Positions 15,004 through 44,614 of a stretch of 64,000 nt of DNA are shown here, one piece after another. Location of the stretch: positions 18,014-82,013 of the forward strand of contig CAZRWT010000002.1 in NCBI GenBank assembly GCA_964603955.1, written 5' to 3'. The stretch is from an uncultured Syntrophobacteraceae bacterium. Its GTDB lineage: Bacteria; Desulfobacterota; Syntrophobacteria; Syntrophobacterales; Syntrophobacteraceae. The position numbers and the translations under genes were made by a program. The notes beneath the pieces were generated by a model. It saw nothing but the letters and a program-made list of their open reading frames with translations. It was not told the origin of the DNA and ran no database searches. Each line of letters begins with the position of its first letter. The stretch's first letter is position 1.

Positions 15004-16242
15004 ATGAAAATCGACGTGAAAATTCCCGAAGTGGGTGAATCGGTACAGGAAGCTCTCCTGGTGGAATGGTACCACAAGGATGGGGACAAGGTGAAAAAGG
15101 ACCAGATTCTTTTCCTCATGGAAACGGACAAGGTGACCCTCGAAGTGGTTGCCGAAGCCGATGGAATCCTGCGCATCCTGGTAAACGAAGGCGAGACGGT
15201 GGCTGTGGGCGCCGTCGTGGCCGTCATAGAAACGGAAGCCGGCCGGAGCGAACCCGTGCCCCGAGAAACTCCCGATGCCGGCACGGGTAAAGGCACGGGT
15301 AAAGGTGATGCGGACGGTGCCGCCCAGGCTCCCCAAGAAGAAACGGCGCTGGTGGCCCCTTCGGCCCGGGTGCTCATGGAGGAAAAGGGCATCGAGGCTT
15401 CTCGAATCAAGGGAACGGGACCTGGAGGACGCATCACGCAGGGAGACGTTTTGCTCTACCTGGAAGGGCAGGAAGAAAAACCGCTCCAGGAAAAGGCTTC
15501 TCGACCGGCTCCGCCGGAGCCGACCCGGGGCGCTTCCCCATCGGAAGAGGTTTCCCGCAAACCCATGAGTCCCATTCGCAGGCGCATCGCCGAGCACCTG
15601 CTCCACGCCAGGCAGAGCACGGCCATGCTCACCACCTTCAACGAAGCGGACATGAGCCGGGTGATCGAACTCCGCCGCCGCTTCCGAGATGCCTTCAAGG
15701 AAAAACATGGAGTACCCCTGGGGCTCATGTCCTTTTTCGTCAAGGCGTCCGTGGCTGCCCTCGAAGAAATCCCCCAGGTCAACGCCTTCATCGACGGCAA
15801 CGACATCGTCCATCACCACTATCAGCACATCGGCGTGGCGGTGGGGGGTGACCGGGGGCTTGTGGTGCCCGTCATCCGGCATGCGGACCGGTTGAGCTTC
15901 GCGCAGATCGAAGGGACCATCGCCGACTTCATCAAGAAAATCCAGGAAAACAAGCTGGAAATTTCCCACATGGAAGGGGGAACCTTCACCATCAGTAACG
16001 GGGGGGTATATGGCTCCCTGTTGAGCACCCCCATTCTCAACACGCCCCAGAGCGCCATTTTGGGCATGCACAAAATCGAAGAGCGGCCCGTGGTGGTCGA
16101 TGGGCAAATCGTCATTCGCCCCATGATGTACCTGGCCCTCAGCTACGATCACCGCATCATCGACGGACGCCAGGCGGTGACGTTCCTCAAACGCATCAAG
16201 GAATGTGTCGAGCATCCCGAACGCCTTCTCCTGGAAGTGTGA
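15004..16242 (+). CDS. sucB: 2-oxoglutarate dehydrogenase E2 (dihydrolipoyllysine-residue succinyltransferase)
   Basis: Start chosen at [14 protein letters not shown] (GAGGG RBS). Lipoyl motif [15 protein letters not shown] (peripheral subunit-binding domain) motif [13 protein letters not shown]. Catalytic motif [14 protein letters not shown]. Confidence 0.92.
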
Positions 16243-16279
16243 AATCATCTGGTAGCATCTGCCGCGCAGGAATTAGGCC

Positions 16280-16358
16280 ATATGCAACTTTCTTGTTCCC
16301 AAGCTCCAGCTTGGGAACACACTTGTCCGGAAGTTCCAGCTTCCCTTTTGAAAGGGGG
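16280..16358 (+). repeat. MITE-like element, copy B (left half only, truncated)
   Basis: ATATGCAACTTTCTTGTTCCCAAGCTCCAGCTTGGGAACACACTTGTCCGGAAGTTCCAGCTTCCC matches the left arm of copies A, D and E. The right half is missing, and the element abuts the Uma2 start. Confidence 0.75.
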
Positions 16359-16361
16359 AAA

Positions 16362-16937
16362 ATGATGGAAACCCCAGCGCGGGAACCCCGGTACTCTCCA
16401 GAACAGTACCTGGCCATGGAGCGAAGGGCGGACCACAAGAGCGAGTACATGGACGGTCGCGTGTTTGCCATGGCGGGAGCGAGCAGGCAGCACAACCAGA
16501 TAACGTTCAATCTCTCCGTGGCAATGGGGATTCAGCTCAAAAAACGGCCGTGTGTTGCCTATTCGAGCGATATGCGCGTTAAAGTGACCCAAACGGGTTT
16601 GTATGCCTACCCTGATGTCGTGGCCACATGCAATGAACCTCAATTCGAGGATTCCTTTTTGGACACTCTGTTGAACCCTCAAGTCATCATCGAGGTGTTA
16701 TCGGAATCCACGGAATCTTATGATCGAGGCAGCAAATTCGCCCACTATCGCAGGCTCGATTCGTTGCAGGAATATGTGCTCGTTGCTCAAAACGCAATGT
16801 GCGTCGAGCATTATGCACGCCGCAGGGAGAAATGGCTTCTTACGGAAATCAGCCTGTCGAGGGGAGAGCTTCATCTCCGATCCATTGGCTGCACCATACC
16901 CTTGACGGACATTTACGACAAAGTGCCTTTGCCTTGA
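16362..16937 (+). CDS. Uma2-family (DUF820) putative endonuclease
   Basis: Start at MMETPAREPRYSPEQYLAMERRADHKSEYMDGRVFAMAGASRQHNQI (GGGGGAA RBS). The pattern E..G.i..M.g....H and later EVLSEST...D...K...Y is typical of Uma2. Confidence 0.8.
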   Translation: MMETPAREPRYSPEQYLAMERRADHKSEYMDGRVFAMAGASRQHNQITFNLSVAMGIQLKKRPCVAYSSDMRVKVTQTGLYAYPDVVATCNEPQFEDSFLDTLLNPQVIIEVLSESTESYDRGSKFAHYRRLDSLQEYVLVAQNAMCVEHYARRREKWLLTEISLSRGELHLRSIGCTIPLTDIYDKVPLP

Positions 16938-17016
16938 ACAACGTTATCGGCGGCGGGAAGTTTGCCGTGCCCCGGGTGAGGCGCCCCTTCCATGCTCCGA
17001 AAGTTGGAGAAACATC

Positions 17017-18453
17017 ATGAGCGACACGAACAAATACGACTTGGTGGTGATCGGATCGGGACCCGGCGGTTATGTGGCCTGTGTGCGCGCGGCTCGACTG
17101 GGAATGAAAACGGCCTGTATAGAAAAATCCGAGCGTCCGGGCGGCGTGTGCCTCAACATGGGGTGCGTTCCCAGCAAGGCCCTGCTCGATTCCAGCGAAC
17201 ACTATCACCTGGTGAAGGAAAGCCTGGGAAGCCACGGCATTATGGTACAAAAGGCGGAACTGGACCTCCGGACCATGATGGCACGCAAGGAAAAGGTCGT
17301 GGATTCACTGGCACGAGATGTCCGAAAGCTCCTCGAAGCCAATGGCGTCGTCATGTATCACGGCACTGCACGGGTCACTGCACCCCATCGAGTGAGCGTG
17401 CAGCCCACGGCAGCGGGGGAAGCGCCTTACGAGCTGGAAGCCCGGTCCATCCTCCTGGCCACGGGCAGCGAGCCCATTCGCCTGGAATCGCTTCCCGTGG
17501 ACGGCCGGCACATCGTGACATCGACGGAAGCTCTCGCCTTCGATACGGTACCCGATCACCTGGGGATCGTGGGCGGCGGGTATATCGGGCTCGAGCTGGG
17601 GTCCGTGTGGCTGAGGCTGGGAGCGCGGGTCACGGTTTTGGAAATGAGTCCCCACATTGCGGGAGGGTTGGACGGCCAGGTGAGACGCGCTCTGGAACGA
17701 GCGCTCACCCGGCAGGGGTTTCAGTGGAAGCTCGAAACCCGGGTCAAATCGGCATGGGTGGAGTCGGGGCGGGTACGGGTCGAGGTGGAATCACGGGGAG
17801 GTGAAAACGAAACCCTGACCTTCGACCGCCTGCTGGTGGCGGTGGGGAGAAGGCCCCTCACTCGGGACCTGGGCATCGAAGCCCTGGGCATGAGGCGAAA
17901 CCAAAGGACGGGAAGCATCTGGGTGGACGAGAGCTACCAAACGAGCGTGCCGGGAATTTTTGCCGTCGGGGACCTGATCGACGGTCCCATGCTGGCGCAC
18001 AAGGCATCGGCGGAAGGCGTGGCCGCCGTGGATTGCATGGCGGGGCTTCCGGGCGAGGTGAACTACGACGCCATTCCCGCCGTGGTGTACACCATGCCCG
18101 AAGTGGCGGCCGTGGGCCTGACCGAAGAGCAGGCCAGGGAGCGCCATGTGCCCGTCTGCGTGGGGCATTACGCCTTTTCGGGAACGGGGCGGGCTCACTG
18201 CCTGGGGGATACGGAAGGTTTCGTGAAGATCATAGGACACGCCAAGACGGGCCGTGTTTTGGGGGTCCATATCATCGGTCCCAAGGCATCGGAACTCATC
18301 GCCCAGTGCGCTCTCGCCATGGAGTTGGGAGCCGGCGTCGAAGATCTGGCCCGCACCATTCACCCTCACCCGACCCTCGGGGAGGCGGTGAAGGAAGCCG
18401 CCATTTCCGCTACGGTGATGCGGGACTCCTTTTCGAAAAACCATTCCAGGTAG
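17017..18453 (+). CDS. lpdA: dihydrolipoyl dehydrogenase (E3)
   Basis: N-terminus YDLVVIGSGPGGYVA. Redox-active disulfide GGVCLNMGCVPSK. NAD site GGGYIGLELG. C-terminal HPHPTLGEA. Confidence 0.95.
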   Translation: MSDTNKYDLVVIGSGPGGYVACVRAARLGMKTACIEKSERPGGVCLNMGCVPSKALLDSSEHYHLVKESLGSHGIMVQKAELDLRTMMARKEKVVDSLARDVRKLLEANGVVMYHGTARVTAPHRVSVQPTAAGEAPYELEARSILLATGSEPIRLESLPVDGRHIVTSTEALAFDTVPDHLGIVGGGYIGLELGSVWLRLGARVTVLEMSPHIAGGLDGQVRRALERALTRQGFQWKLETRVKSAWVESGRVRVEVESRGGENETLTFDRLLVAVGRRPLTRDLGIEALGMRRNQRTGSIWVDESYQTSVPGIFAVGDLIDGPMLAHKASAEGVAAVDCMAGLPGEVNYDAIPAVVYTMPEVAAVGLTEEQARERHVPVCVGHYAFSGTGRAHCLGDTEGFVKIIGHAKTGRVLGVHIIGPKASELIAQCALAMELGAGVEDLARTIHPHPTLGEAVKEAAISATVMRDSFSKNHSR

Positions 18454-29802: not shown

Positions 29803-32800
29803 ATGTTCATGAATGAAAAAAAAGCATCTCAGCCAGTAACTGGCGCGGTAATGGTGGTTGGAGGCGGTATCGCCGGGGTGCAGTCGGCTCTCGATCTGGC
29901 GGAGTCGGGCTACTACGTTTACCTGGTGGAAAACAGCCCTTCCATTGGTGGTGTGATGGCGCAGTTGGACAAGACTTTTCCGACCAACGACTGTTCCATG
30001 TGTATCCTTTCCCCCAAGCTGGTGGAAGGGGGCCGTCACCTCAACATTAAACTCATGACCCTGTGCGATGTGGAAGCCCTCGATGGAGAGGCCGGCAATT
30101 TCACCGTGACGGTGAAGGAACGCCCGAGATACATCGATACGACAAAGTGCATCGCCTGCGGGGTCTGTGCCGAAAAGTGCCCCAAGAAGGTCGAGGACAC
30201 CTTCAATGAAGGCCTGGGACCTCGCAAGGCGGCTTACGTCAAGTATCCCCAGGCGGTTCCTCTCAAGTATGCCATCGACGAGGACAACTGTATTTATTTC
30301 AAAAACGGCAAGTGCCGCGCCTGTGAAAAGTTCTGTCCCGCCGGTGCTGTTGATTTCAATCAGAAGCCTCAGACGCACACCGTCCAGGTGGGTTCCGTCA
30401 TTCTCGCCCCCGGCTTCAAGGCCTTCAGCCCCGAAGTCTATGATACCTACGGTTTCGGGAAATATCCCAACGTGATCACCAGCATGCAGTTTGAGCGCAT
30501 CCTGAGTGCTTCGGGTCCCTTCGAAGGCCACCTGGTGCGTCCTTCCGACAAGAAGGAGCCCAAAAAGATTGCCTGGCTCCAGTGCGTGGGGTCCCGCGAC
30601 ATCCACCATGGGGCTCACGGCTACTGTTCCGGCGTGTGCTGTATGTACGCCATCAAGGAAGCGGTCATCGCCAAGGAGCATTCCAAGGAAGGGCTCGATA
30701 CGGCCATCTTCTTCATGGACATGCGCACTTACGGCAAGGATTTCGAGCGCTATTACAACCGGGCCAAAGGAGAGACGGGGGTACGCTTCATCCGGTCCCG
30801 TATCCACAGTGTGGCCACCCTTCCCGGTACCGATGACCTGGTGCTCGAATATGCCGACGAAAACGGTCAGCTTCAAAGTGAAGTCTTCGACATGGTGGTT
30901 TTGTCCATCGGCCTGGAAATCGGCGACGAACTGAAGAAAATGGCGGAAAGAATCGGAGTGGGGCTCGATGCCGATGGGTTTGCGCAAACGAGCTGCTTCA
31001 CGCCCGTGGCCACTTCGAAAGAAGGTGTTTTCGCCTGTGGCGCCTTTTCCGGTCCCAAGGACATTCCCTACTCGGTCATGGAAGCATCCGCGGCATCTGC
31101 GGCATCCGCCGCCCTGCTTTCTTCCGTGCGGGGCACCCTCACCCAGGAAAAGACCTACCCGGCCGAGGAGGATGTGGAAAAAGAAGAGCCGCGTGTCGGT
31201 GTTTTTGTCTGCCATTGCGGCATCAACATCGGCAGCGTGGTGAATGTTCCAGGGGTGAAGGAATATGCCCGGTCCCTCCCCGGAGTGGCTTACGTGGCGG
31301 AAAACCTTTTCACCTGTTCGCAGGACACGCAGCAGATCATTCGCGATGCCATCAAGGAACACAAGCTCAACCGCGTAGTGGTGGCGGCCTGTACGCCCCG
31401 CACCCATGAGCCCCTCTTCCAGGAAACCATCCGCGAGGCGGGCCTCAACCGTTATCTTTTTGAACTGGCCAACATTCGCGACCAGGATTCCTGGGTGCAT
31501 CAGGCCGAACCCGAAAAGGCCACGGAAAAGGCCAAGGACCTGGTGCGCATGGCGGTGGCCAAGGTGGCGTTGCTCGAACCTATCGAGCGCATGAGGGTCG
31601 ATTTGAACCAGGATGCCCTGGTGATCGGCGGTGGTGTTTCGGGCATGAGCGCCGCCGTGAACCTGGCGGACCAGGGCTTCAAGACCTACCTTGTCGAGGA
31701 AAAGCCCGAACTTGGCGGCCATGCCCTCAAGGTGCATAAGACCTGGAAAGGCGAAGATGTTGCTTCCTACGTCAAGGCACTGGTGGACAAGGTCGAAAAG
31801 CATGCCAATATCGAGGTGCTCAAGGGCGCCAAGGTGACCGATGTTTCCGGCTTCGTGGGGCAGTTCAAGACCACGGTGCAGACCGACGGCGCGGCTCGCG
31901 AATTGGAGCACGGGGTGGCCATTATCGCCACGGGCGCTCATTCCCTGGCTCCCGATCTGTACCTCTACGGTCAAAATGATCGCGTGAGCCGCTGGCACGA
32001 CTTGCAAAAAATGCTTGAGGAAGACCCCAAAAAGCTGGACGAGGCGGAAGCTGTGGCCTTCATCCAGTGTGTAGGGTCCCGCGAACCCGAACGTCCCTAC
32101 TGCTCGAAAATCTGCTGTACCGCTTCGGTGCAACAGGCACTGGACCTCAAGGCGAAAAAGCCGGACCTGGATGTTTACATCCTGTATCGCGACATGCGTA
32201 CTTACGGCGGACGGGAAGACCTGTACAAAAAGGCCCGCGAGCAGGGCGTTCTTTTCATTCGTTTCAACCAGGATGAAAAGCCGACCGTGGAAGCCGTGAA
32301 GGACGGCGGCAAGGAAAAATTGCGGCTCACCGTCAAGGACCATATCCTGGGGCGTCCCATCAAGATCGATGTGGATTACCTCAACCTGGCCACGGCCATC
32401 ATTCCCAAGGGCCAGGAAGAGCTGGCCAAGTTCTTCAAGGTGCCCCTCAATGAAGACGGCTTCTTCCTGGAAGCCCACATGAAACTGCGCCCGGTGGATT
32501 TTGCCACGGACGGCGTGTTCATTGCCGGTCTGGCGCATTATCCCAAGCCCATCGAGGAGTCCATCGCCCAGGCCCAGGCGGCGGCGGCTCGGGCATCGAG
32601 CGTGCTGGCCAAGCCCTATGTCGAGGTCGAGCCGGTTGTTTCCGTGGTGAACCAGGATATGTGTATCGGCTGCGGACTCTGTGAAGCTTCCTGTCCCTTC
32701 GGGGCCATTCGGCTGCACAAAATCGTCGGCAAGGGGTATCGAGCTGAAACCATTTCCGCATCCTGCAAGGGCTGCGGTGTTTGCGCCGCGTCGTGTCCCA

Positions 32801-32877
32801 TGAAAGCCATCGACATGATGCATTTCCGTGACCGTCAAATCTGTGCTGCGATTCGTGCGGGTGGTGCACGTCAATAG
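29803..32877 (+). CDS. hdrA: large HdrA-like flavoprotein (internally duplicated HdrA core; HdrL-like), Cys form
   Basis: 1024 aa. First FAD site VVGGGIAGVQSALDLAESG; second dinucleotide site VIGGGVSGMSAAVNLADQG. Two copies of the HdrA cluster motif are present: CVGSRDIHHGAHGYCSGVCC and CVGSREPERPYCSKICC. Several ferredoxin-type CxxCxxCxxxCP motifs. Confidence 0.88.
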   Translation: MFMNEKKASQPVTGAVMVVGGGIAGVQSALDLAESGYYVYLVENSPSIGGVMAQLDKTFPTNDCSMCILSPKLVEGGRHLNIKLMTLCDVEALDGEAGNFTVTVKERPRYIDTTKCIACGVCAEKCPKKVEDTFNEGLGPRKAAYVKYPQAVPLKYAIDEDNCIYFKNGKCRACEKFCPAGAVDFNQKPQTHTVQVGSVILAPGFKAFSPEVYDTYGFGKYPNVITSMQFERILSASGPFEGHLVRPSDKKEPKKIAWLQCVGSRDIHHGAHGYCSGVCCMYAIKEAVIAKEHSKEGLDTAIFFMDMRTYGKDFERYYNRAKGETGVRFIRSRIHSVATLPGTDDLVLEYADENGQLQSEVFDMVVLSIGLEIGDELKKMAERIGVGLDADGFAQTSCFTPVATSKEGVFACGAFSGPKDIPYSVMEASAASAASAALLSSVRGTLTQEKTYPAEEDVEKEEPRVGVFVCHCGINIGSVVNVPGVKEYARSLPGVAYVAENLFTCSQDTQQIIRDAIKEHKLNRVVVAACTPRTHEPLFQETIREAGLNRYLFELANIRDQDSWVHQAEPEKATEKAKDLVRMAVAKVALLEPIERMRVDLNQDALVIGGGVSGMSAAVNLADQGFKTYLVEEKPELGGHALKVHKTWKGEDVASYVKALVDKVEKHANIEVLKGAKVTDVSGFVGQFKTTVQTDGAARELEHGVAIIATGAHSLAPDLYLYGQNDRVSRWHDLQKMLEEDPKKLDEAEAVAFIQCVGSREPERPYCSKICCTASVQQALDLKAKKPDLDVYILYRDMRTYGGREDLYKKAREQGVLFIRFNQDEKPTVEAVKDGGKEKLRLTVKDHILGRPIKIDVDYLNLATAIIPKGQEELAKFFKVPLNEDGFFLEAHMKLRPVDFATDGVFIAGLAHYPKPIEESIAQAQAAAARASSVLAKPYVEVEPVVSVVNQDMCIGCGLCEASCPFGAIRLHKIVGKGYRAETISASCKGCGVCAASCPMKAIDMMHFRDRQICAAIRAGGARQ

Positions 32878-32963: not shown

Positions 32964-33722
32964 ATGAGTCAAACTTTCGAGCCGAAGATTCTGGCCTTCC
33001 TATGCAACTGGTGTGCATATGCCGGGGCCGACCTGGCGGGCGTGTCCCGCTTTCAATACCCGCCGACCATCCGGGTCATCCGCACCATGTGCTCGGGCCG
33101 CGTCGATCCCACTCACGTGGTGGAGGGGTTGAAGAGCGGCTTTGACGGTGTCTTCGTCTTTGGTTGACACCTCGGCGACTGTCATTACCTGGAAGGTAAT
33201 GTTTATACCCAGAAGCGTATGCGCGTTGTGTCCCGGTTGCTGGAACTGGCCGGTATCGGCAGTGACAGGATGCACCTGAGATGGGTGAGTGCCGCGGAGG
33301 GACAGATTTTCGCGGATTTTGTAAAGGAATTGAGCGCTGTCATCGGTGAAAAGGGCCCCTTCGATCCCAAGGAGCATCAGTTGAAGCTGGCCGCTGTGGA
33401 GGGAGCATTGAATTCTCCTCGCCTCAGGTGGCTTTTGGGCATGGATCGGCAGCTCACCGAGCGGGAGAATGTGTATCACCATAAGTTGGACGATGCGGCT
33501 TATGAGAAGCTGGTGGATCAGGCGACGGAAGAAGAGTATCAGAAAGCCATGATCCTGGAGGTTCTCAAGGATGGGCCGCAATCAGTGCGCGAAATCGCAG
33601 GCAAGAGCGGGCTGCCGATTTACACGGTGTCTCAGCTGCTCGGTGACATCGAAAAGGCCGGTAAAATCGAGTTTCACGGCTACGAAGGGACCACACCGAA
33701 GTTCATCAGGCTGGCGGCATAG
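32964..33722 (+). CDS. mvhD: MvhD-like protein with in-frame UGA (probable Sec at 33165..33167) and C-terminal winged-helix-like extension
   Basis: Track ORFs 32964..33167 and 33219..33722 share a frame, and the only stop between them is this TGA. VFVFG-TGA-HLGDCHYLEGN aligns to VWVSGCHPGDCHYIEGN of the paralog at 37032. The C-terminal region is ILEVLKDGPQSVREIAGKSGLPIYTVSQLLGDIEKAGKIEF. Confidence 0.8.
33183..33201 (+). other. putative bacterial SECIS-like hairpin for UGA 33165
   Basis: CATTACC tggaa GGTAATG: a 7-bp perfect stem starting 15 nt after the UGA, with a GG-containing loop. Confidence 0.55.
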
Positions 33723-33845
33723 GTCCGCGTGGTTTGTGTGATGGGGCGGACGCCGCGAGGGGAGGGGGCTTCGATACAGGTTCCCGGTCTTCGGGGTGCT
33801 GCCCGTAAACGCTAAAGTAGCAGAGGAAACGACAGCAGGATAAAA

Positions 33846-36800
33846 ATGATGAACGCTAGCAATAACAATAAAGTCGGCGCTGTAATGGTCGTCGGAGCCG
33901 GCATCGCCGGCATGCAGGCGGCCCTGGACCTGGCAGATTCAGGTTATTACGTCCATCTCGTGGACCGCTCACCCACCGTGGGCGGGATCATGGCTCAGCT
34001 GGACAAGACGTTCCCGACCAACGACTGTGCCATGTGAGTCATCTCACCCAAACTGGTCGAGGTCGGCCGGCATCATAATGTAAATATCATCACCAACTCT
34101 TCCGTTGATTCTCTGGAGGGGGAAGCTGGAAACTTTACGGCAAAGCTCAAAACTCAACCGAGGTACATCGATCCGCTGCGCTGCACCGGTTGCGGCGACT
34201 GCGCCAAGGTGTGCCCCGTGACAAGCGTCAACGAGCACAACTGTGGACTGGACAAGCGTGCGGCTACCTATATCCGCTATGCTCAGGCCGTGCCCCTGGT
34301 TTTTGCCATCGATACGGACATCTGTATCGGGTGCGGCCTTTGTGAAAAAGTGTGTCTGGCCCAGGCCATCAAGTACGACGATCAGGCCCGCTACACCGAA
34401 GTGAAGATCGGGTCCGTCATTTTGGCCACCGGTAACGACGTGTTCGATCCTTCTCATTTCGATACCTACAGCTACGCTCAACTTCCCAACGTGATCACCA
34501 GTATGGAGTTCGAGCGTATTCTCAGTGCTTCCGGTCCTTATATGGGCCATCTCATGCGGCCCTACGACCGGGAAGAGCCCAGAAAGGTCGCCTGGTTGCA
34601 ATGCGTGGGTTCCCGAGACACGCACCACTGTGACAATCCCTACTGTTCGGGCGTGTGTTGTATGTATGCCATCAAGGAAGCCGTCATCGCCAAGGAGCAT
34701 TCGCACAGCGGCATGGAGGCGTCCATCTTCTATATGGACATGCGCACTTACGGAAAAGACTTCGAGCAGTATTACGACAAGGCCAAGGAAGAAGGCGTGC
34801 GATTTATCCGGTCGCGCGTCCATTCGGTGGAACCGGTGGGGGATGGAGACCTCGAAATCACCTATGCGGATGAAACCGGCCAGGTCAAGCAGGAAGTGTT
34901 CAACCTGGTGATCCTTTCCGTAGGGTTCCAGGTAGGGAAGGAAGGCATCGAGCTTGCTGAAAAGCTTGGTATCGACCTCAATGAAAACCGTTTCGTCAAA
35001 ACCGACAGTTTCACCCCCGTGGCCACTTCGCGGGAAGGTGTGTATGTCTGCGGAACCTTCCAGGGTCCCAAGGACATTCCCCAGTCCGTGATGGAAGCAT
35101 CGGCGGCGGCGTCGGCATCCAGCCTCCTTTTGAGCGACGCGCGCTGGACCGAAGCCACGGTCAAGGAAAAGCCCACGGAAAGAAATATCATCGGTGAACG
35201 CCCCCGCATCGGCGTGTTTGTGTGCCAGTGCGGTATCAACATCGGCGGCATCGTGAACATTCCCAAGGTGCGGGAATATGCCCGTACCCTGCCTTATGTG
35301 ACTTATGTGGAAGACAATCTCTATACCTGTTCCCAGGACACCCAGGTGAAAATGGCCCAGGTGATCAAGGAACAGGGGATCAACCGCGTGGTGGTGGCTG
35401 CCTGTACGCCTCGTACTCACGAGCCTCTCTTCCAGGAGACTCTGGCCAACGCGGAACTGAACAAGTACCTCTTTGAAATGGCCAACATTCGAAACCAGGA
35501 TTCCTGGGTGCATTCGGGCGATCCCGTGAAAGCCACGGAGAAAGCCATGGACCTGGTGCGCATGGCCGTTTCCAAGGTAGCCCTCCTCGAACCCCTCAAG
35601 GAATCGGAACTGGGAGTGACGAGGAAGGCCATGGTGGTCGGCGGCGGTGTTGCCGGCATGGTGGCGGCCAAGGAACTGGCGGACCAGGGGTATCCCGTGT
35701 ACCTCGTGGAGAGGTCTGCACAGTTGGGCGGCCAGGCGAGGAAGCTGTTCCAGACCTGGAGGGGCGAGAGCATCCCGGCCTATGTGGATGAGCTGGCCAA
35801 AGAAGTGGAAAACCACCCCAACATCACGCTTTACCTGAACAGTGAACTGAAAAACGTGGACGGGTTTGTAGGGAATTTCAAGTCTACCATTCAAAACGGC
35901 GGTGAACCGGAACTCGTCGAGCACGGGGTCACCATCATCGCCACGGGTGGTCGAGAACTGCAACCCGAGGAATATTGCTATAAAAAACATCCCCGTATCG
36001 TGACGCATCAGGAACTGGATCAGCGGTTCGCTGAGAAAGATCCCAGTCTCAAGAGCATCAACAGTGCCGTTTTCATTCAGTGCGTGGGCTCGCGAGAACC
36101 TGACCGTCCCTATTGCAGCCGAGTTTGCTGCACCCATTCCGTGGAGAGCGCTCTCGAGCTGAAAAAGCTCAATCCCGAAAGTGATGTGTATGTGCTCTAC
36201 CGGGATATGCGGACTTACGGGGAACGTGAATTGATTTACCAGGAAGCCCGCAAGAAAGGTGTGATCTTCATCCGCTACTCCCTGGACAACAAGCCCCAGG
36301 TGGAAGTGGTGAACGACAAGGTCCAGGTGACCGTGTTCGATCCCATCCTTCAGCGGCCCATCCGTGTGGTGAGTGACCTGGTGACGCTGGCGACGGCCAT
36401 CCTTCCCAATGAAACCGATGCCCTGTCTCAGTTTTTCAAGGTACCGGTCAACGCGGAAGGGTTTTTCATCGAGGCCCATGCCAAGCTGCGTCCCGTGGAT
36501 TTCTCCACGGACGGTGTGTTTTTATGCGGTCTGGCCCACTATCCCAAGGCCATTGACGAGAGCATCGCTCAGGCCAAGGCTGCGTCGGCCCGCGCCGCGA
36601 CCCTCCTGGCTCGCGACTCGATTTTCTTCAGTGGGATGGTGGCCTACACGAGGCCCATCGATTGCAGCAGCTGCGGGGTTTGTGTGAGCATCTGCCCGTT
36701 CAGTGCGCCGCGTTTCATCGAGACGGGGCGGGATGCGGGCAAGGCGGAAATCAACCCGGCTCTTTGCAAGGGCTGCGGGCTTTGCGTGGCTTCGTGCCGT

Positions 36801-36866
36801 TCGGGTGCCATCGGGCTGCGAGGCTTCGATGACTCCCAGATTTTTGCCATGATCGATAATGTTTGA
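33846..36866 (+). CDS. hdrA: large HdrA-like flavoprotein, selenocysteine form (UGA at 34035..34037)
   Basis: Track ORFs 33846..34037 and 34209..36866 share a frame, and I read no other stop between them. [21 protein letters not shown] aligns to FPTNDCSMCILSPKLVEGG of the paralog at 29803. The rest is collinear with paralog 1 ([37 protein letters not shown]). Confidence 0.85.
34053..34070 (+). other. putative bacterial SECIS-like hairpin for UGA 34035
   Basis: CTGGTCG aggt CGGCCGG: a 7-bp stem including 2 G-U pairs, loop AGGU, starting 15 nt after the UGA. Confidence 0.5.
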
Positions 36867-37031
36867 TCCATTCTTCGAGCCTTTTTTTTCATGGGCGGAT
36901 GAAGTCGGACTTCCTCTGCCCATGGCTCGGTTTGAGAGAGAGTTTGAAACGAGCTGAAGCCCTTTTGGAAAGTTGGAGCACAATCGAGCGCGAGTGTCGC
37001 TTCAGTTTCAGTTTGAAATAGGAGAACTTAC

Positions 37032-37463
37032 ATGTCCGATTGGGAACCGAAAATCGTAGCCTTCCTGTGCAACTGGTGTTCGTATGGGGCGGCGGACCTC
37101 GCAGGCGTCAGCCGCATGCAGTATCCGCCGAACTTTCGTGTCATCAGAGTACCTTGTACAGGTCGAATCAATCCTAAATTCATTCTTTCCGCCCTGCGTC
37201 ACGGCGCGGATGGGGTATGGGTGTCCGGATGCCACCCCGGAGATTGCCATTACATCGAGGGGAACCTCTACGCGCGCCGGAAATTTGCCCTTTTGAAAAA
37301 CATGTTGGAGCATATGGGCATCGAGCCCAAACGTCTCCATTTTTCATGGATTTCTTCCGCGGAATCCACCAAGTTTGCCGATGTGGCTCGCGAAGTGATC
37401 CGTACGGTCAAGGAAGCAGGTCCGGCTCGACATTTCATCAAAAAGCAAGCTGAGGTGGCGTAG
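37032..37463 (+). CDS. mvhD: MvhD/FlxD-like protein (methyl-viologen-reducing hydrogenase delta subunit family), Cys form
   Basis: 143 aa. Motifs KIVAFLCNWCSYGAADLAG, RVPCTGR and VSGCHPGDCHY. Confidence 0.88.
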   Translation: MSDWEPKIVAFLCNWCSYGAADLAGVSRMQYPPNFRVIRVPCTGRINPKFILSALRHGADGVWVSGCHPGDCHYIEGNLYARRKFALLKNMLEHMGIEPKRLHFSWISSAESTKFADVAREVIRTVKEAGPARHFIKKQAEVA

Positions 37464-38414
37464 ATGCAAGCATATACCGAACGGATTCGAGAGGCGGCGA
37501 AACGCTTGTTGAGTGAGGGCAAGGCGGATGTGGTGATCGGATTTCGCAAGGGCACCATTCCCTTCATGAACGAGCCCTACCTTGCCAAAACGGCCGAACA
37601 GGTCGATCAGCTCATGTGGGACGGCAACTGTGGTGTGAACCTCGCCAATTATCTCACCAAGAGGACGGATCGCGTTGCCGTTGTGGCCAAGGGGTGCGAT
37701 TCGAGAAACATCGTGGAGCACATTGTCGAGAACCAGGTCAAACGCGACAACCTCCACATCATCGGAGTCCCCTGCAAGGGGATGATCGACAAGCGTCGCA
37801 TCAACGGCGAACTCAAGGGCAAGGAGCCTTTGACCGTCGAGGAAACGGAAAAGGAAATTCAGATTAAGGGCCGTGACTGGAACTTGACGCTGGATCGTAA
37901 GGAATTCCTCCAGGAAAATTGTGCCATCTGTATCCACCGCAATCCCGTCATTTACGATGAGCTGGTGGGTGACCTGGTGGAGGAGCAGAAAGACGTTGAT
38001 CGTTACGCCGACGTGAGGAAGATCGAGGCCATGGGTGCCGAGGAGAAATGGAAATATTTCGACGATCTCATCTCCGGGTGCATCCGCTGTTATGCCTGCC
38101 GCAACGCCTGTCCGGCATGCTATTGCCCGACCTGCTTCGTGGATGAGTCGCGGCCTCAGTGGGTGGGAAAATCCACTGATCCCACCGACACGCGCACCTT
38201 TCACTTTTTGAGGGCTTACCACCTGGCGGGGCGTTGTACCGATTGCGGCTCCTGTGAGAGGGCCTGTCCCGTGGGCATCAAGGTACGCCAATTCAATAAG
38301 AAGCTCGAGAAGGACGTCAAGGAACTGTTCGATTACGAAGCCGGGATCAACCCGGATGTGCGCCCGGCTCTCGACTTCTATCGACCCGATGATCCCCAGG
38401 GATTCATCAAGTGA
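37464..38414 (+). CDS. 4Fe-4S cluster protein (FlxB/FlxC- or FrhB-related)
   Basis: 316 aa. The start ATG directly follows the mvhD stop. Motifs CIRCYACRNACPACYCPTC and CTDCGSCERACP. Confidence 0.7.
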   Translation: MQAYTERIREAAKRLLSEGKADVVIGFRKGTIPFMNEPYLAKTAEQVDQLMWDGNCGVNLANYLTKRTDRVAVVAKGCDSRNIVEHIVENQVKRDNLHIIGVPCKGMIDKRRINGELKGKEPLTVEETEKEIQIKGRDWNLTLDRKEFLQENCAICIHRNPVIYDELVGDLVEEQKDVDRYADVRKIEAMGAEEKWKYFDDLISGCIRCYACRNACPACYCPTCFVDESRPQWVGKSTDPTDTRTFHFLRAYHLAGRCTDCGSCERACPVGIKVRQFNKKLEKDVKELFDYEAGINPDVRPALDFYRPDDPQGFIK

Positions 38415-38557
38415 TCCCGTCTCCCGGCCGGCGGCGTTTTGCGTCGCGGTACCCATGGAGACGCATGAATGTATGGACCTTGTTGGACCTGGGAGCGGCT
38501 TTTTCATCCAACAGTCGATCACGGGTAGAAGAACTCTGCTGAAAAAGGATTGAATTC

Positions 38558-39604
38558 ATGTCGGAAATTTATATCTCCAAAGAAAAATTTCCAGAAGTCG
38601 TAGGACAGCTCATGAGCCGCGGTCGTGTCTATGGACCCGTGTTTCAAGGGATGTATCATGAGTTTGCCCGGCTGGAGAAACCGGAAGACATAGACCTCGG
38701 CTTTCAGAACACGCGCCTTTCGCCAAAGGAGCTTTTTCATCCTCAATGTGAAAGGATGTTCACCTATTCCCTGGCCAAGGACGATCCCGAGTGTTGCATC
38801 GTCAAGGAAGCTCCCAAGGATTACTCGCCTCGAGTGGTTTTGGGCATCCGTCCCTGTGACGCCAAGGCGTTTCAACTGGACGACTGCAACTTCGACACGG
38901 AAACCATCAAGGACCCCTGGTGGGTGGAAAGAAGAAAAACCACCACCCTGGTGGGGCTTGCCTGCAACACCCCTTGCAACACCTGTTTTTGTACCACGGT
39001 GGGTACCGGCCCCTTCGATACATCGGGACTGGACGCGCTCATGGTGGATGTGGGAGACGGCTATGTGATCCGTGCCGTCACGGACAAGGGCAAAGAATGC
39101 ATCGGGGCCGTGAAGGGCGCTCAAGCGGTGCCGACCCCCGCCGCAGAAAAGGAAGCCCAGCTCAAAAAAGCGGCCGAGGACGGCATGGGCCAGGTATTCG
39201 ATATGAAGCCCATCTACGAGAAAAAGACCCTGGACCTTTTCAACGATCCCCTTTGGGATGAGGTCCAGTTCGCGTGCATCAACTGCGGAACCTGCACTTT
39301 TGTATGCCCCACCTGCTGGTGCTTCGACATTCAGGACGAAGTTCAGGGAGATGCGGGAGACCGCTTGAAAATGTGGGATTCCTGCATGTTTCCCCTGTTC
39401 ACCTTCCATGGGTCGGGTCACAATCCGCGCTCTCAAAAGCTTCAGAGGGTTCGGCAGCGGTTCATGCACAAGCTCAAGTACTATCCCGAAAAGTACGGAA
39501 ACGGACCGACTTGCGTGGGTTGTGGTCGCTGTGTGAAGTCCTGCCCGGTCAACATCGACATTCGACATGTGGCTCGCCTCATGTCCGCAGCCTGCAGTTG
39601 TTAG
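38558..39604 (+). CDS. 4Fe-4S dicluster protein (AsrA / sulfhydrogenase-beta / FlxB/C-like)
   Basis: 348 aa. Motifs CINCGTCTFVCPTCWCFD and CVGCGRCVKSCP. Positioned directly upstream of an AsrB/HydG-like flavoprotein. Confidence 0.7.
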   Translation: MSEIYISKEKFPEVVGQLMSRGRVYGPVFQGMYHEFARLEKPEDIDLGFQNTRLSPKELFHPQCERMFTYSLAKDDPECCIVKEAPKDYSPRVVLGIRPCDAKAFQLDDCNFDTETIKDPWWVERRKTTTLVGLACNTPCNTCFCTTVGTGPFDTSGLDALMVDVGDGYVIRAVTDKGKECIGAVKGAQAVPTPAAEKEAQLKKAAEDGMGQVFDMKPIYEKKTLDLFNDPLWDEVQFACINCGTCTFVCPTCWCFDIQDEVQGDAGDRLKMWDSCMFPLFTFHGSGHNPRSQKLQRVRQRFMHKLKYYPEKYGNGPTCVGCGRCVKSCPVNIDIRHVARLMSAACSC

Positions 39605-39634
39605 ACCTGCGCGCTCATAAATGGAGGAACGAAG

Positions 39635-40477
39635 GTGAGGAATCCTTATCTGCCTTATCCTGTCCGTATCGAGTCCATCGTGACGGAAACGGAAGATCGC
39701 AATCTCAAGACGTTCAAGTTCGTCTTTCTCAACAAGGAAGACGAAGAGAGCTTCAAATACATTCCCGGCCAGTTTGCCGAGCTTTCCGTGCCGGGCCAGG
39801 GCGAAATCCCCATCGGTATCGCCTCGTCCCCCACGGAAAAAGGCTTCATCATGTTCACGGTCAACAAGGTGGGGAAGGTATCGAGCTACATGCACAACAT
39901 GCAGGTCGGCGACATCATGGGTGTGCGCGGCCCCCTGGGCAACTGGTACCCCTGGGAAACGCTCGAGGGCAAGAATATCGTCATCATCGGCGGTGGTTTT
40001 GCCTTCACGACCCTGCGCTCGTCCATCGAGTACATGTTGCAGCCCGAAAACCGCTCCCGTTTCGGGAAGATCGACGTGGTTTACGGCGCCCGGACCCCCG
40101 GCCTTTTGCTCTACAAGGACCAGTTGGCGGCCTGGGAACAGCGGGACGACATCGACATGCACATCACCGTGGATTCCAGCAACGACCCCAACTGGAAGTA
40201 CAACGTGGGTTTCGTGCCGGCGGTGACCAAGGAGAAGGCCCCGAGCGCGGAAAATTCCTACGCCATCATCTGCGGGCCCCCCATCATGATCAAGTTCACC
40301 CTGCCGGTGCTGACCGAACTGGGATTCCCGCCCGAGCGGATCATTTCCAGTCTCGAAATGAGGATGAAATGTGGCATCGGCATTTGCGGTCGCTGTAACC
40401 TGGGGACCGAGTATGTTTGTAAGGACGGTCCCGTTTTCACGTTGGAAAAGCTTTCCCAGTTGCCCAACGAGTATTGA
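39635..40477 (+). CDS. FAD/NAD(P)H-binding oxidoreductase with C-terminal 2Fe-2S (AsrB / HydG / PyrK / FlxA-like)
   Basis: 280 aa, GTG start with GGAGGA RBS. Motifs FKYIPGQFAEL, VIIGGGFAFTTLRS and a C-terminal CGIGICGRCNLG. Confidence 0.8.
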   Translation: MRNPYLPYPVRIESIVTETEDRNLKTFKFVFLNKEDEESFKYIPGQFAELSVPGQGEIPIGIASSPTEKGFIMFTVNKVGKVSSYMHNMQVGDIMGVRGPLGNWYPWETLEGKNIVIIGGGFAFTTLRSSIEYMLQPENRSRFGKIDVVYGARTPGLLLYKDQLAAWEQRDDIDMHITVDSSNDPNWKYNVGFVPAVTKEKAPSAENSYAIICGPPIMIKFTLPVLTELGFPPERIISSLEMRMKCGIGICGRCNLGTEYVCKDGPVFTLEKLSQLPNEY

Positions 40478-40641
40478 TTTCGAGCATTGTTTTTTGCTGT
40501 GAAGCCTCGTGCATTGTCCTCGAGCCGGGGGCGATGCGCGGGGAAGACGTCTCACGGAAAAAGTGCTTCAAATGAAGAGTACCGTGTGTTATAGGCTTTA
40601 AGCGAGCCATCTACTTGAAAAACATTTCAGGGGAGAGAATT

Positions 40642-41862
40642 ATGGAGCCATTGCTGTTGACAAAGCGCGATAAGCGCAAACTGGCGAGCCAATACGCCGA
40701 CCTGTGCCTCACCTGTGGCACTTGTTCCGGTGGCTGTCCGGTCACAGGTGTTGACGGCCTGGATGTGCGGAAAGTCGTGCGCCTGGCCTTGCTCGGGTTG
40801 GATCAGGAAGTGATCGACTCGAAATTTCCTTGGGTTTGTACCCTCTGTGGACGGTGTGAGCACGCATGTCCCATGAACATCGACCTCCTTGCCCTGCTGC
40901 GGTCCGCCCGTAGCAAAAGAGCCAGGGACAAGGTGCCCGGTGTGCTGCACAAGGGTGTCGAGATGTGCTTGAAGACCGGCAACAACGTGGGCATTCCCAA
41001 GGATGACTTTGTCTTCCTGCTGGAAGATCTGGGAGTGGAGTTGGCCGAGGAACTGCCGGGTTTCGAGGTTCCCGTGGACAAAAAGGGAGCCAAGTACCTT
41101 TTCACCATCAATTCCAAGGAACCCTTCGCCGAACCCGAAGACATGATGTACTGGTGGCGTATCCTGTATGCCGCCAATGAATCGTGGACGGTGCCGTCGG
41201 AAAACTGGGAAGGTGTCAACTGGGGTCTGTTCACTGGTGACGACGAGGCCATGAAGGAAATCGTCGGACGCCTGGTGAAGAACTACAAGGAACTCGAGTG
41301 CGAGTACCTTGTCTTACCCGAATGAGGCCACGCTTACTATGCGACCAGGCTTGGTCTGCAAAAATGGTATGCCGACGAAGGCGTCAAGTTCCTCAGTATT
41401 CATGATCTCCTCACTTCGTATGTGAAAGAGGGTCGGATTAAACTGGACAAGACGATTCATCATCATCTGACCACGTATCACGATCCTTGCAACTATGCGC
41501 GTAAGAGCGAGCGCACTTTCGGCCACGGCTACTACGAGGAGCCCCGTTGGGTGACTCAGCAGTGCTGTGAGAATTTCGTGGAAATGTATCCCAACCGCGC
41601 CAACAATTTCTGTTGCGGTGCCGGCGGCGGTGCCTGGGCTTCCCCCTACGTGGAAGAGAGAATCTTCTACGGCAGGACCAAGGCCAAACAAATCAAGGAC
41701 ACCGGGGCCAAGCTGCTCATCGCTCCGTGTCACAACTGTCGTGACCAGATCATGAAGAGCCTCCGCAAGGAGTACGATTTTGAAGATGTAGAAGTCAAAT
41801 ACCTCTGGGAGCTGGTGGCCGACTCTTTGATCATCGAGCCCCGCGAGGAAGCCGAAGAATAA
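40642..41862 (+). CDS. fused HdrC/HdrB-type (HdrD/DsrK/GlpC-like) Fe-S protein with in-frame UGA (probable Sec at 41323..41325)
   Basis: Start at MEPLLL (GGGAGAG RBS). N-terminal ferredoxin motifs CLTCGTCSGGCP and CTLCGRCEHACP. Track ORFs 40615..41325 and 41422..41862 share a frame, and the only stop between them is this TGA. The C-terminal CCG domain reads DPC...CCGAGGG...PCHNC. Confidence 0.72.
41341..41359 (+). other. putative bacterial SECIS-like hairpin for UGA 41323
   Basis: GCGACC aggctt GGTC(t)GC: 6 bp with one bulge, a GG-containing loop, starting 15 nt after the UGA. Confidence 0.4.
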
Positions 41863-41891: not shown

Positions 41892-41935
41892 AGCCCCAGA
41901 ATCGCGCCGTCGGCGTGTGCATGGGGCTTTTTTTT
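41892..41935 (+). terminator. intrinsic terminator after the hdr/flx-like operon
   Basis: AGCCCCA ...23 nt... TGGGGCT followed by an 8-nt T-run. Confidence 0.6.
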
Positions 41936-41964
41936 GCCCTCTCAACCACAAATCAAGTGTGGGT

Positions 41965-43188
41965 ATGAAAAAGAAACGAGACACCAAAAAAGCAAAAAAG
42001 AGCAGCGTGACTCTCTCCCGGGAAGACCAGCTCGAGTTGCAGATGATCCTGGATCGCCTTTCCGTCCAGAATCCTGATGGAGAGAGCTTCCATAATTACC
42101 TGGAATCGCTTGCGGGAATCCTTGGGAACCGGGAGGAATTCACTCTCGCTTTCCTGGAAGATTTGAGTAGGAAGCCCACGGTGGCGGGATTCAAAGTGTT
42201 CCAAAAGCTGAAGGATATTGTGAGGGGATCGGATAACAAGAGAGCCGTGAGGCAGGCGGCCTACAGGTTCGAGCAAAAAGGTTTTACCGTGGACGAGGGG
42301 AGTGAGGCTCGAGAAAAAGTTGTACTGGTTTCCAAAGAAGAGCGCAAAGCGGCGGCTCACCTCATTTCCATGGGAGGGACTTTCGGTTTTGTGGCAGCCA
42401 TCGTTCCGATCGAGGGTTATCCTGTTCCCATGGCTTTGACCGTTTACGCGCATGTTGCATCGGAAGCCATCAAGGCAAGCGTGACTCAGAGCTCCCACAG
42501 TGTTTATCGGGATTACCTGCGGATGGTTGCCGGAGAAGTTCCTGGATCAAATATCTGTGAGGTGCCCATCAGCCATGCGGCTCGTTTGGTGTTCGAATTG
42601 CCGGATTTGCTCGGGAGGCATGGGTATGTGGTCGAACTGGAAAGGGCTAAGGAACTCCTGAAACCCTACCATGATCCTCAAAAACCTCCACATATTCATG
42701 TTTTGATGGAAAAAATCGAGCATCCGGGCGAGGCGATACGGGCGGTTCGTATCCGGGAACTGATGGAGCACCTGGACCTTTCATGGCTCTTGTTTTCCCA
42801 GGAAGAACTGGCACCGTATCGCGATGATCTGGAAAGTTCGCGCAGCACCGTGCTCGTGCTGTCGACGGATATCATGCAGGATCGCACACAAGCCTTGTTG
42901 AAGCGGGCAGCCGACTCCTTGTGCGTCGGCAATAAAAAGCATTTCTACATCCGCTTTTTCGAAGAACAGGCACTGGTGTTTTATCTTTCCGGCATGATGA
43001 ATGCCGCTAAAGACGCCTGGATCACGGCACAACACCTTGCATCGGATCTGCCGCCCGGTGAAAATCCTGTTGTCGTCCAAGTGATTCTCTCGTCCATACA
43101 TGAACACTGGCCGGAAGCAAGCGAAGTGGCGCAGGAAGAACCGGAGCCTTACGAAACGACCGATTCAGGGTTGCTGATTCTGCGGTGA
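41965..43188 (+). CDS. hypothetical protein (no recognisable domain)
   Basis: 407 aa from MKKKRDTKKAKKSS. Coding-like composition. Located after a terminator and before yjbQ. Confidence 0.55.
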   Translation: MKKKRDTKKAKKSSVTLSREDQLELQMILDRLSVQNPDGESFHNYLESLAGILGNREEFTLAFLEDLSRKPTVAGFKVFQKLKDIVRGSDNKRAVRQAAYRFEQKGFTVDEGSEAREKVVLVSKEERKAAAHLISMGGTFGFVAAIVPIEGYPVPMALTVYAHVASEAIKASVTQSSHSVYRDYLRMVAGEVPGSNICEVPISHAARLVFELPDLLGRHGYVVELERAKELLKPYHDPQKPPHIHVLMEKIEHPGEAIRAVRIRELMEHLDLSWLLFSQEELAPYRDDLESSRSTVLVLSTDIMQDRTQALLKRAADSLCVGNKKHFYIRFFEEQALVFYLSGMMNAAKDAWITAQHLASDLPPGENPVVVQVILSSIHEHWPEASEVAQEEPEPYETTDSGLLILR

Positions 43189-43300: not shown

Positions 43301-43699
43301 ATGTTGGAAACCATTCAGGTCAATACTCCGGATCACGGTGTCATGGTGGATATCACCGATCTCGTGTCCCATAGGGTCAAGGAAAGCGGCGTGCAAAGCG
43401 GAATCTGCATGGTTTATGTGCCGCATACCACTGCGGCAGTAACCATAAATGAGGGTATCGATCCAGATGTCATGGACGACATCCTCAAAACCCTGGATAA
43501 GGTGATTCCCTGGCGCGCCGGTTACAAGCACACCGAGGGCAATTCGGCGGCACACATTAAGGCCATGCTGACGGGTGGGAGCTGTCACCTCATCATCGAC
43601 GGAGGACGCCTGATGCTGGGTACCTGGGAGCGTATTTTCCTGTGTGAGTACGATGGGCCGAGAACCAGGAAAATACGGATCAAGATCATGAGAGATTGA
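43301..43699 (+). CDS. yjbQ: YjbQ-family protein (UPF0047, secondary thiamine-phosphate synthase)
   Basis: 132 aa. Motifs GICMVYVPHTTAAVTINE, HTEGNSAAHIKAML and GTWERIFLCEYDGPR. Confidence 0.88.
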   Translation: MLETIQVNTPDHGVMVDITDLVSHRVKESGVQSGICMVYVPHTTAAVTINEGIDPDVMDDILKTLDKVIPWRAGYKHTEGNSAAHIKAMLTGGSCHLIIDGGRLMLGTWERIFLCEYDGPRTRKIRIKIMRD

Positions 43700-43705
43700 G
43701 GGGAT

Positions 43706-44614
43706 TCACTCGAAAATTTCGATCACGTTGGACAGCGTCTCATCGGGCATTTCCTCGAAGGGTTTTTGGCAGAACACCACTCGCATCCTGTACTTGCCCG
43801 GCTGAAGGTGTTCCGGTATTTCCAGGGAAATGTGGCGGGATGCTTTCCGGTCGGCTATGGGGATGCAGTTCTCGGCGCCCTGTTGAATCACCGGAGCCCA
43901 TGCCGCCGTGTGATCCTGCTGAGCATTGCTCACGAATAGCACCGTGGCCGATATGCCGAATCCGAAATCGCTCACCGAAGCGAACCGCAGGCGTACCGGG
44001 TCTCCGGGGCGGTACCGGTCCAGGTCCGAAGAGAGATGGATGCGCCGGTTTTGTTCGCTTTGGTCCGTTCTCGTACCCGATGTGCCCGCTTCCCAGAACC
44101 TGGGTCGCCCTGAATCCAGGTGAATGGCCGGCCCACCGTAGTGCCCCACTCCACAGCAGTCTTCACTCCTGATGAGTTCCCACAGTTCCTTCCCGTTCAC
44201 TCCCTCGATTTTAAAATCCAGGGCCATACCGTCCATGTGCAGGCTTGTCATGGCCACATTGCCGCCCCGTTCTCTCAGGGCTGCGTTGTAGTCGGGATCG
44301 CGGTAGGCCGATACCACATCGATCCTTTTTCCCGGTGCCGCCAGGTCCGTGAAATGGTCCAGTATGAAAAGCATCCTCGGGCAGATGTGTTCCCCCTTCT
44401 CCTCTGTGGGAAATCCGAAGAGTTCATCAATGCGGGCCAGTTCATCATGGTCGAGGGAGCCGTCGGGGTTGAGCAGGGACACACGGATTTCCCGGCCCGA
44501 GTGCATGTTTTTGAGGTGCAGCTTTCCGTCTCCCATGAGGAAAAAACGATTCGGTTGCATGTCCGCATGGGAGATGCCCGCAGCGAAAAAAAGGCACATG
44601 CAGGTGAAAAGCAA
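43706..44614 (-). CDS. DUF882 (YcbK-like, peptidase M15A fold) protein with C-terminal extension; start uncertain
   Basis: Motifs VVSAYRDPDYNAAL, TSLHMDGMALDF and GVGHYGGPAIHLD. A signal-like segment KTFSWPTLLFTCMCLFFAAGISHA has no canonical upstream ATG or GTG; a TTG at 44614 was used provisionally. The ORF stays open into MITE copy D. Confidence 0.65.
   Translation of the reverse strand: MLFTCMCLFFAAGISHADMQPNRFFLMGDGKLHLKNMHSGREIRVSLLNPDGSLDHDELARIDELFGFPTEEKGEHICPRMLFILDHFTDLAAPGKRIDVVSAYRDPDYNAALRERGGNVAMTSLHMDGMALDFKIEGVNGKELWELIRSEDCCGVGHYGGPAIHLDSGRPRFWEAGTSGTRTDQSEQNRRIHLSSDLDRYRPGDPVRLRFASVSDFGFGISATVLFVSNAQQDHTAAWAPVIQQGAENCIPIADRKASRHISLEIPEHLQPGKYRMRVVFCQKPFEEMPDETLSNVIEIFE

Follow-up and report, generated by a model that had tools for sequence, protein, structure and literature searches.

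Introduction

The bacterial selenocysteine insertion sequence (SECIS) is a stem-loop that stands immediately 3' of a UGA codon, inside the open reading frame (ORF), and its consensus (Zhang & Gladyshev 2005, bSECISearch, as summarised in PMC13188914, Fig. 2A) is given as a loop of 3–9 nucleotides (nt), an upper stem of 4–16 base pairs (bp), a distance of 16–37 nt from the UGA to the loop and a minimum free energy of −7.5 kcal/mol or lower (PMC13188914). G occupies at least one of the first two places of the loop, with G or U usually after it (PMC13188914). In the SECIS of E. coli fdhF, the reference that has been characterised by experiment, the K-12 record shows the UGA followed by 11 nt and then by GGUUGCAGGUCUGCACC, whose loop GGUC lies 18 nt from the UGA. 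Recent work emphasises the variability of bacterial SECIS elements and the imprecision of predictions made from the SECIS alone (PMC12013277). In Deltaproteobacteria, for example the Olavius symbionts, the selenoprotein families include FrhD/MvhD, HdrA and an iron-sulfur (Fe-S) oxidoreductase (GlpC), together with HesB-like, DsrE-like, peroxiredoxin (Prx), FdhA and hydrogenase large-subunit (FrhA) selenoproteins, and hdrA clusters with frhD/mvhD (PMC1976440). Here we describe three candidate selenoprotein genes and their predicted SECIS hairpins in a 64,000-nt stretch of DNA, the whole of which is called the window below: positions 18,014 to 82,013 of the forward strand of contig CAZRWT010000002.1, assembly GCA_964603955.1, from an uncultured Syntrophobacteraceae bacterium.

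All three genes lie on the + strand of the window, in whose coordinates all positions are given unless a contig is named, and were translated with TGA read as selenocysteine (Sec, U). The first (32964..33722) would encode an MvhD/FlpD-like selenoprotein that carries a C-terminal winged-helix-like extension, with Sec at residue 68 (FGUHLGDCHY); the second (33846..36866), identified also by Pfam, an HdrA-like selenoprotein of 1006 amino acids (aa) with Sec at residue 64 (NDCAMUVISPK); and the third (40642..41862), likewise matched by Pfam, an HdrD/GlpC-type Fe-S oxidoreductase with two 4Fe-4S motifs, a CCG domain and Sec in the motif LPEUGHAYY. The corresponding UGA codons are at 33165..33167 (site 1, MvhD), 34035..34037 (site 2, HdrA) and 41323..41325 (site 3, HdrD-like), assigned from sequence, translation and Sec/cysteine (Cys) alignment at sites 1 and 2 and from sequence, translation and orthologues at site 3. 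Comparative analysis of the sequences leads us to consider it very probable that these UGAs are Sec codons in known families (MvhD/FlpD 'FrhD', HdrA and HdrD/GlpC-type), each served by an ordinary bacterial SECIS, and that the 15-nt spacing which the three hairpins share is a coincidence, because nine other selenoprotein genes of the same genome have spacers of 12–20 nt.

Results

Hairpins downstream of the three UGA codons

A first-pass annotation of the window had placed hairpins at 33183..33201, 34053..34070 and 41341..41359, each 15 nt after the UGA at 33165, 34035 or 41323, and direct reading together with ViennaRNA folds reproduces all three on the + strand. Predicted SECIS hairpin 1 (33183..33201), CAUUACC-UGGAA-GGUAAUG, is separated from its UGA by a 15-nt spacer at 33168-33182; it has 7 bp, or 8 bp and a GGA loop in the minimum-energy fold, which gains a U-A pair, and the loop begins 23 (or 22) nt after the UGA. 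Predicted hairpin 2 (34053..34070), CUGGUCG-AGGU-CGGCCGG, has a 15-nt spacer and 7 bp, two of them G-U pairs, and its loop begins 22 nt after the UGA. The same loop distance of 22 nt is found at predicted hairpin 3 (41341..41359), GCGACCA-GGCU-UGGUC(U)GC, which again has a 15-nt spacer and 7 bp but also a bulged U. Here an optional U41340-A41360 pair lets the contiguous helix start after 14 nt, and the helix start at site 3 falls 14, 15 or 17 nt after the UGA according to the definition used. Thus, the description of the first paired base as the 16th nucleotide in every case holds at sites 1 and 2 and depends at site 3 on the choice of helix end. GG is present in all three loops, as had been noted; the further remark that U follows it in two of the three was wrong, as the loops read GGA, GGU and GGC, with GGU at site 2 only.

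Over 60 nt the minimum free energies at sites 1, 2 and 3 are −11.5, −12.8 and −15.2 kcal/mol. Folded alone, the hairpins reach −7.1, −9.1 and −6.9 kcal/mol (−8.5 at site 3 with the extra U-A pair), which leaves hairpins 1 and 3 borderline against the consensus limit of −7.5 kcal/mol.

The frequency of such structures was assessed with a strict pattern, a hairpin of at least 7 bp that starts 15 nt after the TGA and has a GG-containing loop of 3–6 nt. This pattern follows 358 of the 104,118 TGAs of the genome (0.34%); its rate is 0.22% after in-frame Cys codons and 0.27% after TGAs that truly end long ORFs. Its occurrence at three of three sites by chance has a probability of about 4e-8. The hairpins at the three UGA sites are not chance, and the suspicion that their geometry would be hard to explain in that way was well founded.

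Spacing across the selenoprotein genes of the genome

The source genome is a Syntrophobacteraceae metagenome-assembled genome (MAG) of 3.05 Mb in 104 contigs, about 92% complete. In-frame TGAs flanked on either side by coding signal were sought throughout it and then examined by Pfam and by Sec/Cys pairing with tblastn, which indicates at least 12 selenoprotein genes, three in the window and nine elsewhere. The latter encode FdhA, a peroxiredoxin, a HesB-like protein (Fe-S_biosyn), a [NiFeSe] hydrogenase large subunit, a second MvhD and a second HdrA (both on contig C20), a DsrE-like protein, an HdrA-MvhD fusion (contig C33) and a YedE/Sulf_transp-like protein (GUPSGHG), which is the least certain of the nine. 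Their contig positions are C10:6529(+), C38:24661(-), C6:5006(+), C20:936(-), C20:4724(-), C20:7869(-), C20:26658(-), C33:17265(-) and C39:9293(+). The fusion protein (contig C33, ~15547-17415, minus strand, 824 aa) carries Sec in its HdrA motif (DCSIU) and Cys in its MvhD domain (SGCHIGDCHY), so that Sec and Cys occur in different domains of one polypeptide.

Every one of the 12 apical loops contains GG. In the nine other genes the helix starts after spacers of 16, 19, 20, 12, 14, 19, 16, 14 and 13 nt and the UGA-to-loop distances are 23, 27, 27, 18, 21, 25, 22, 21 and 21 nt; the window sites have spacers of 15, 15 and 15 (or 14) nt and distances of 23, 22 and 22 nt. Taken together, the spacers span 12–20 nt and cluster at 13–16 nt, and the UGA-to-loop distance spans 18–27 nt with a mode of 21–23 nt (8 of the 12 sites), a range that is evidently tolerated in this genome, to judge from these assignments.

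The first-pass annotation had read the shared geometry as a species-specific SECIS template with a fixed spacer, by which further selenoprotein genes could be found, and the corresponding explanation would be that SelB and ribosome geometry in this organism require exactly 15 nt. The offset at all three window sites, the rarity of the strict pattern at random TGAs and the genome-wide mode of 21–23 nt would fit such a requirement. However, none of the nine other sites has a spacer of exactly 15 nt, and even within the window the helix start at site 3 shifts with the definition. FdhA, the kind of selenoprotein against which that annotation had proposed to judge the idea, has a 12-nt spacer and, as in E. 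coli fdhF, a UGA-to-loop distance of 18 nt, here with the loop GGUCU; the other half of the proposed comparison turned out differently, in that similar hairpins are not similarly frequent at random TGAs. In addition, the alignments indicate that two HdrA lineages of this one genome each conserve an offset of their own, with the loop at 22 nt in 19 genomes and at 27 nt in 15. In the latter lineage, that of the contig C20 gene, the 15 genomes conserve UCGAGUGC-GGUCG-GCACUUGA with a spacer of 19 nt; the outer pair of this hairpin occurs in wobble and compensatory states, and the positions equivalent to the window-type stem vary freely. The 15-nt spacing is not a fixed requirement of the organism, and a reading that demands one, which we regard as improbable, is already largely refuted by this in-genome comparison.

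The value of the template for gene finding was judged by an explicit pattern scan over all TGAs of the genome. In its strict 15-nt form it recovers 3 of the 12 true sites among its 358 matches, and a relaxed form returns 4,276 matches, or 4.1% of all TGAs. A three-sequence covariance model of about 37 positions would contain too little information for a 3-Mb search. Scanning for in-frame TGAs by codon usage only gave 1,314 and then 162 candidates, mostly antisense frames and gene junctions, and the coding scan combined with a hairpin filter left 17, of which 12 are real. The rejected candidates were set aside from their read-through translations in three cases, a TGA that precedes the likely start codon of a glucose-1-phosphate adenylyltransferase-like gene (C4:43634), the junction of two regulatory genes (C39:4451) and the end of a radical-SAM-like gene (C8:67239), and for want of a Pfam match at C16:23337 and C5:14840.

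Conservation of the hairpins in Sec and Cys forms

Orthologues were gathered from 96 genomes of the same order and from public contigs. When the MvhD hairpin is scored as kept with at least 7 of 8 pairs plus a GG loop, it is kept in 21 of 21 Sec forms versus 4 of 10 Cys forms (Fisher p=2.9e-4), and among the Sec orthologues its codons have the lowest synonymous diversity of 74 six-codon windows. The HdrA hairpin is intact in 19 of 19 Sec orthologues versus none of four Cys orthologues (Fisher p=1.1e-4); its codons rank lowest of 263 windows by the same measure. One of the 19, L104, has a compensatory C-G to U-A change at the closing pair, and a single compensatory change is also seen in the HdrA orthologue L212.

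For the HdrD-like gene, the 30 closest orthologues do not differ at any nucleotide of the upper stem and loop; one of them departs at the two basal pairs, and the spacer codons vary synonymously in the same set. Across 67 distinct Sec-form sequences one stem pair (alignment columns 24/31) is CG in 55 and UA in 12, and unpaired in none, with a covariation score above 500 of 500 shuffles and all slid controls; the hairpin codons have the second-lowest synonymous diversity of 284 windows among Sec orthologues. The U-A state combines ACC to ACU, a synonymous threonine (Thr) change, with GGU to AGU, which replaces glycine (Gly) by serine (Ser). Distant Sec paralogues of this gene retain the hairpin through register-shifted compensations, and in its Cys forms the hairpin or the loop G is lost. 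The orthologues in which the U-A pair occurs together with the Gly-to-Ser replacement are L142, L162, L164-L168, L170, L171, L173, L176 and L182.

The same contrast exists within the source genome, where a SECIS-like hairpin follows 12 of 12 Sec sites versus 0 of 12 paralogous Cys sites. Two of the latter lie in the window itself and serve as internal negative controls: an HdrA paralogue recognised by Pfam (29803..32877, + strand) in which the Sec position is occupied by Cys (TGT at 30001), and an MvhD/FlpD paralogue (37032..37463, + strand; Pfam FlpD, E=6.8e-56) in which it is likewise Cys (TGC at 37230). A SECIS-like hairpin was sought after the Cys codon of each, and none was found. Because Sec forms show synonymous constraint and covariation, because Sec and Cys forms differ, and because hairpin and Sec coincide throughout the genome, the comparative sequence data identify the three hairpins as SECIS elements under RNA-level selection; the common recoding signal suggested by the first-pass annotation is in this respect supported.

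The same observations bear on a second explanation, that the hairpins are by-products of conserved peptide motifs and codon bias rather than functional RNA. All three do lie within strongly conserved peptide motifs (HYLEGN, KLVEVGR and ATRLGLQ), and four Cys-form MvhD genes (L063, L076, L081 and L082) still have the hairpin. Against this, Cys forms that encode the same peptide break the helix by synonymous codons, for HYLEGN in L069, L070 and L080 and for KLVEVGR in L097, L100 and L115; synonymous diversity of the Sec forms falls to about zero only over the hairpin codons; and compensatory double changes occur, one of them at the cost of the Gly-to-Ser replacement. We therefore give this explanation very little weight. 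The hairpins that persist in the four Cys-form MvhD genes, and that of one HdrD-like Cys form (L052) in which the stem is retained and the loop Gs are lost, resemble fossil SECIS elements that remained after recent Sec-to-Cys conversion.

The three selenoprotein genes and their neighbourhood

Each of the three U residues falls within a Pfam domain match, and all three positions align with Cys in homologues from other genomes. The FlpD domain (PF02662) of the Sec MvhD (E=2.3e-48, residues 9-127) spans the UGA, and the U aligns with Cys in six paralogues of the same genome by tblastn; Sec orthologues with one TGA are present across the order. The U of HdrA aligns with Cys in four same-genome paralogues, among them the upstream gene at 29803-32877. 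For the HdrD-like gene, 95 of the order's 96 genomes contain a match, and most of these carry an orthologue of 80–94% identity with a single TGA at the same codon; this TGA aligns with TGC (Cys) in the more distant homologues L052, L054 and L055. The genome also encodes tRNA-Sec, selB (410 bits, above the cut-off) and selA (614 bits). That the TGAs are instead real stops in split genes or pseudogenes, or assembly errors, is scarcely credible: although translation table 11 splits each of the three genes into two ORFs, the HdrD-like TGA keeps its codon position in most of the matching genomes, those of MvhD and HdrA recur in many independent assemblies, Pfam domains cross the TGA and the Sec machinery is present.

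In the HdrD-like gene the longest ORF begins at TTG 40615; the true start is probably ATG 40642, because orthologues have TAG or TAA directly upstream of MEPLLL. The single TAG that appears inside several of the HdrD-like orthologue matches is this upstream stop and no pyrrolysine candidate.

The C-terminal extension of the Sec MvhD (32964-33722) comprises about 110 aa and has weak winged-helix matches (DprA_WH, DUF742; E ~2e-4). Full-length matches to the extended protein are found in many genomes of the order, among Sec and Cys forms alike.

The gene order is HdrA(Cys), MvhD(Sec), HdrA(Sec), MvhD(Cys), two Fe-S proteins, a FAD/NAD oxidoreductase and HdrD-like(Sec), and the neighbourhood is by its gene content an Hdr/Flx-like redox cluster. 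Downstream of the HdrD-like gene, the ORFs at 41917-43188 (423 aa) and 43696-44172 (158 aa) match no Pfam family at E<=1e-5.

Discussion

Several observations weigh against the view that the three UGAs are Sec codons with ordinary SECIS elements and a coincidental common spacing. Folding z-scores against shuffles over 60 nt were not significant (0.30, −1.01 and 0.00 at sites 1–3), because the hairpins are small relative to the 60 nt shuffled. At the gathering score no Rfam family matched anywhere in the window, and a search of 33100-34150 that admitted E<=10 returned no SECIS family; models of this kind do not suit bacterial SECIS elements well, which are short and variable in sequence. No selD (TIGR00476) was found above the cut-off in the genome contigs, the best match scoring 88 bits against a cut-off of 125; since the MAG is incomplete, the gene probably lies within the roughly 8% that is unassembled. 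The SECIS assignments of the HesB-like, NiFeSe, DsrE-like, Prx, contig C33 HdrA and YedE-like genes were made from single sequences. Finally, the three window sites agree with one another somewhat more closely than would be expected from the spread over the genome, which leaves room for a weak local spacing preference.

By analogy with the E. coli system, a ribosome with the UGA in its A site would receive Sec from a SelB-GTP-Sec-tRNA(Sec) complex tethered to the apical loop by the C-terminal winged-helix domains of SelB, in competition with release factor 2, and the distance from UGA to loop would have to fit the path from the messenger RNA (mRNA) entry channel to SelB. A tentative extension of this scheme, which we think unlikely on present comparisons, is that the SelB of Syntrophobacteraceae may favour a distance of 21–23 nt (as seen at 8 of the 12 sites; E. 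coli fdhF has 18 nt) and tolerate 18–27 nt, and that the distinct offsets of the HdrA paralogues (22 versus 27 nt) might tune the efficiency of Sec insertion between them. Alongside this we note that the constraint of the SECIS visibly shapes the protein: part of the HdrD-like family combines a Gly-to-Ser replacement with a synonymous Thr change, and the two jointly preserve one base pair.

In practical terms, the three genes split under translation table 11 should be annotated as single selenoproteins: MvhD-like at 32964-33722, HdrA at 33846-36866 and HdrD-like at 40642-41862. When a SECIS template is derived from a few adjacent genes it over-fits, and the only features of it that can be carried over to other genes are already in the published consensus; a relaxed template is usable only with a coding filter. 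The comparative data, in which Sec forms stay synonymously invariant, Cys forms show decay and compensatory pairs occur, amount to a textbook-style case of RNA-level selection in coding sequence. They concern an already known mechanism in known selenoprotein families, and add nothing new on the mechanism of Sec decoding.

When compared with the bacterial SECIS consensus, the three window sites and the nine other sites of the genome all fit. The window hairpins have loops of GGA/UGGAA, AGGU and GGCU on stems of 7–8 bp, within the consensus terms, and over 60 nt they satisfy its energy limit; of the permitted 16–37 nt between UGA and loop they use only a narrow part, 22–23 nt, and otherwise there is no substantive difference. 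The E. coli fdhF element resembles them as a hairpin with a GG(U) apical loop, with a bulged U in the stem at site 3 as well, and the FdhA of the source genome shares its UGA-to-loop distance of 18 nt. In contrast, the window hairpins stand 4–5 nt farther from the UGA (22–23 versus 18 nt), and the loop trinucleotide GGU of fdhF (G22 G23 U24) recurs at site 2 only, with GGA at site 1 and GGC at site 3.

The gene families are those listed for Deltaproteobacteria such as the Olavius symbionts. The same three occur in the window, with Sec in place of a conserved Cys and hdrA beside mvhD, and the HesB-like, DsrE-like, Prx, FdhA and hydrogenase large-subunit selenoproteins of that set (PMC1976440) are also represented in the source genome. 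What differs is the host, an uncultured Syntrophobacteraceae MAG, and the C-terminal winged-helix-like extension predicted for its MvhD. The spread of spacers and loops across one genome, and the poor yield of the hairpin template by itself, match the variability of bacterial SECIS elements and the imprecision of SECIS-only prediction described previously (PMC12013277).

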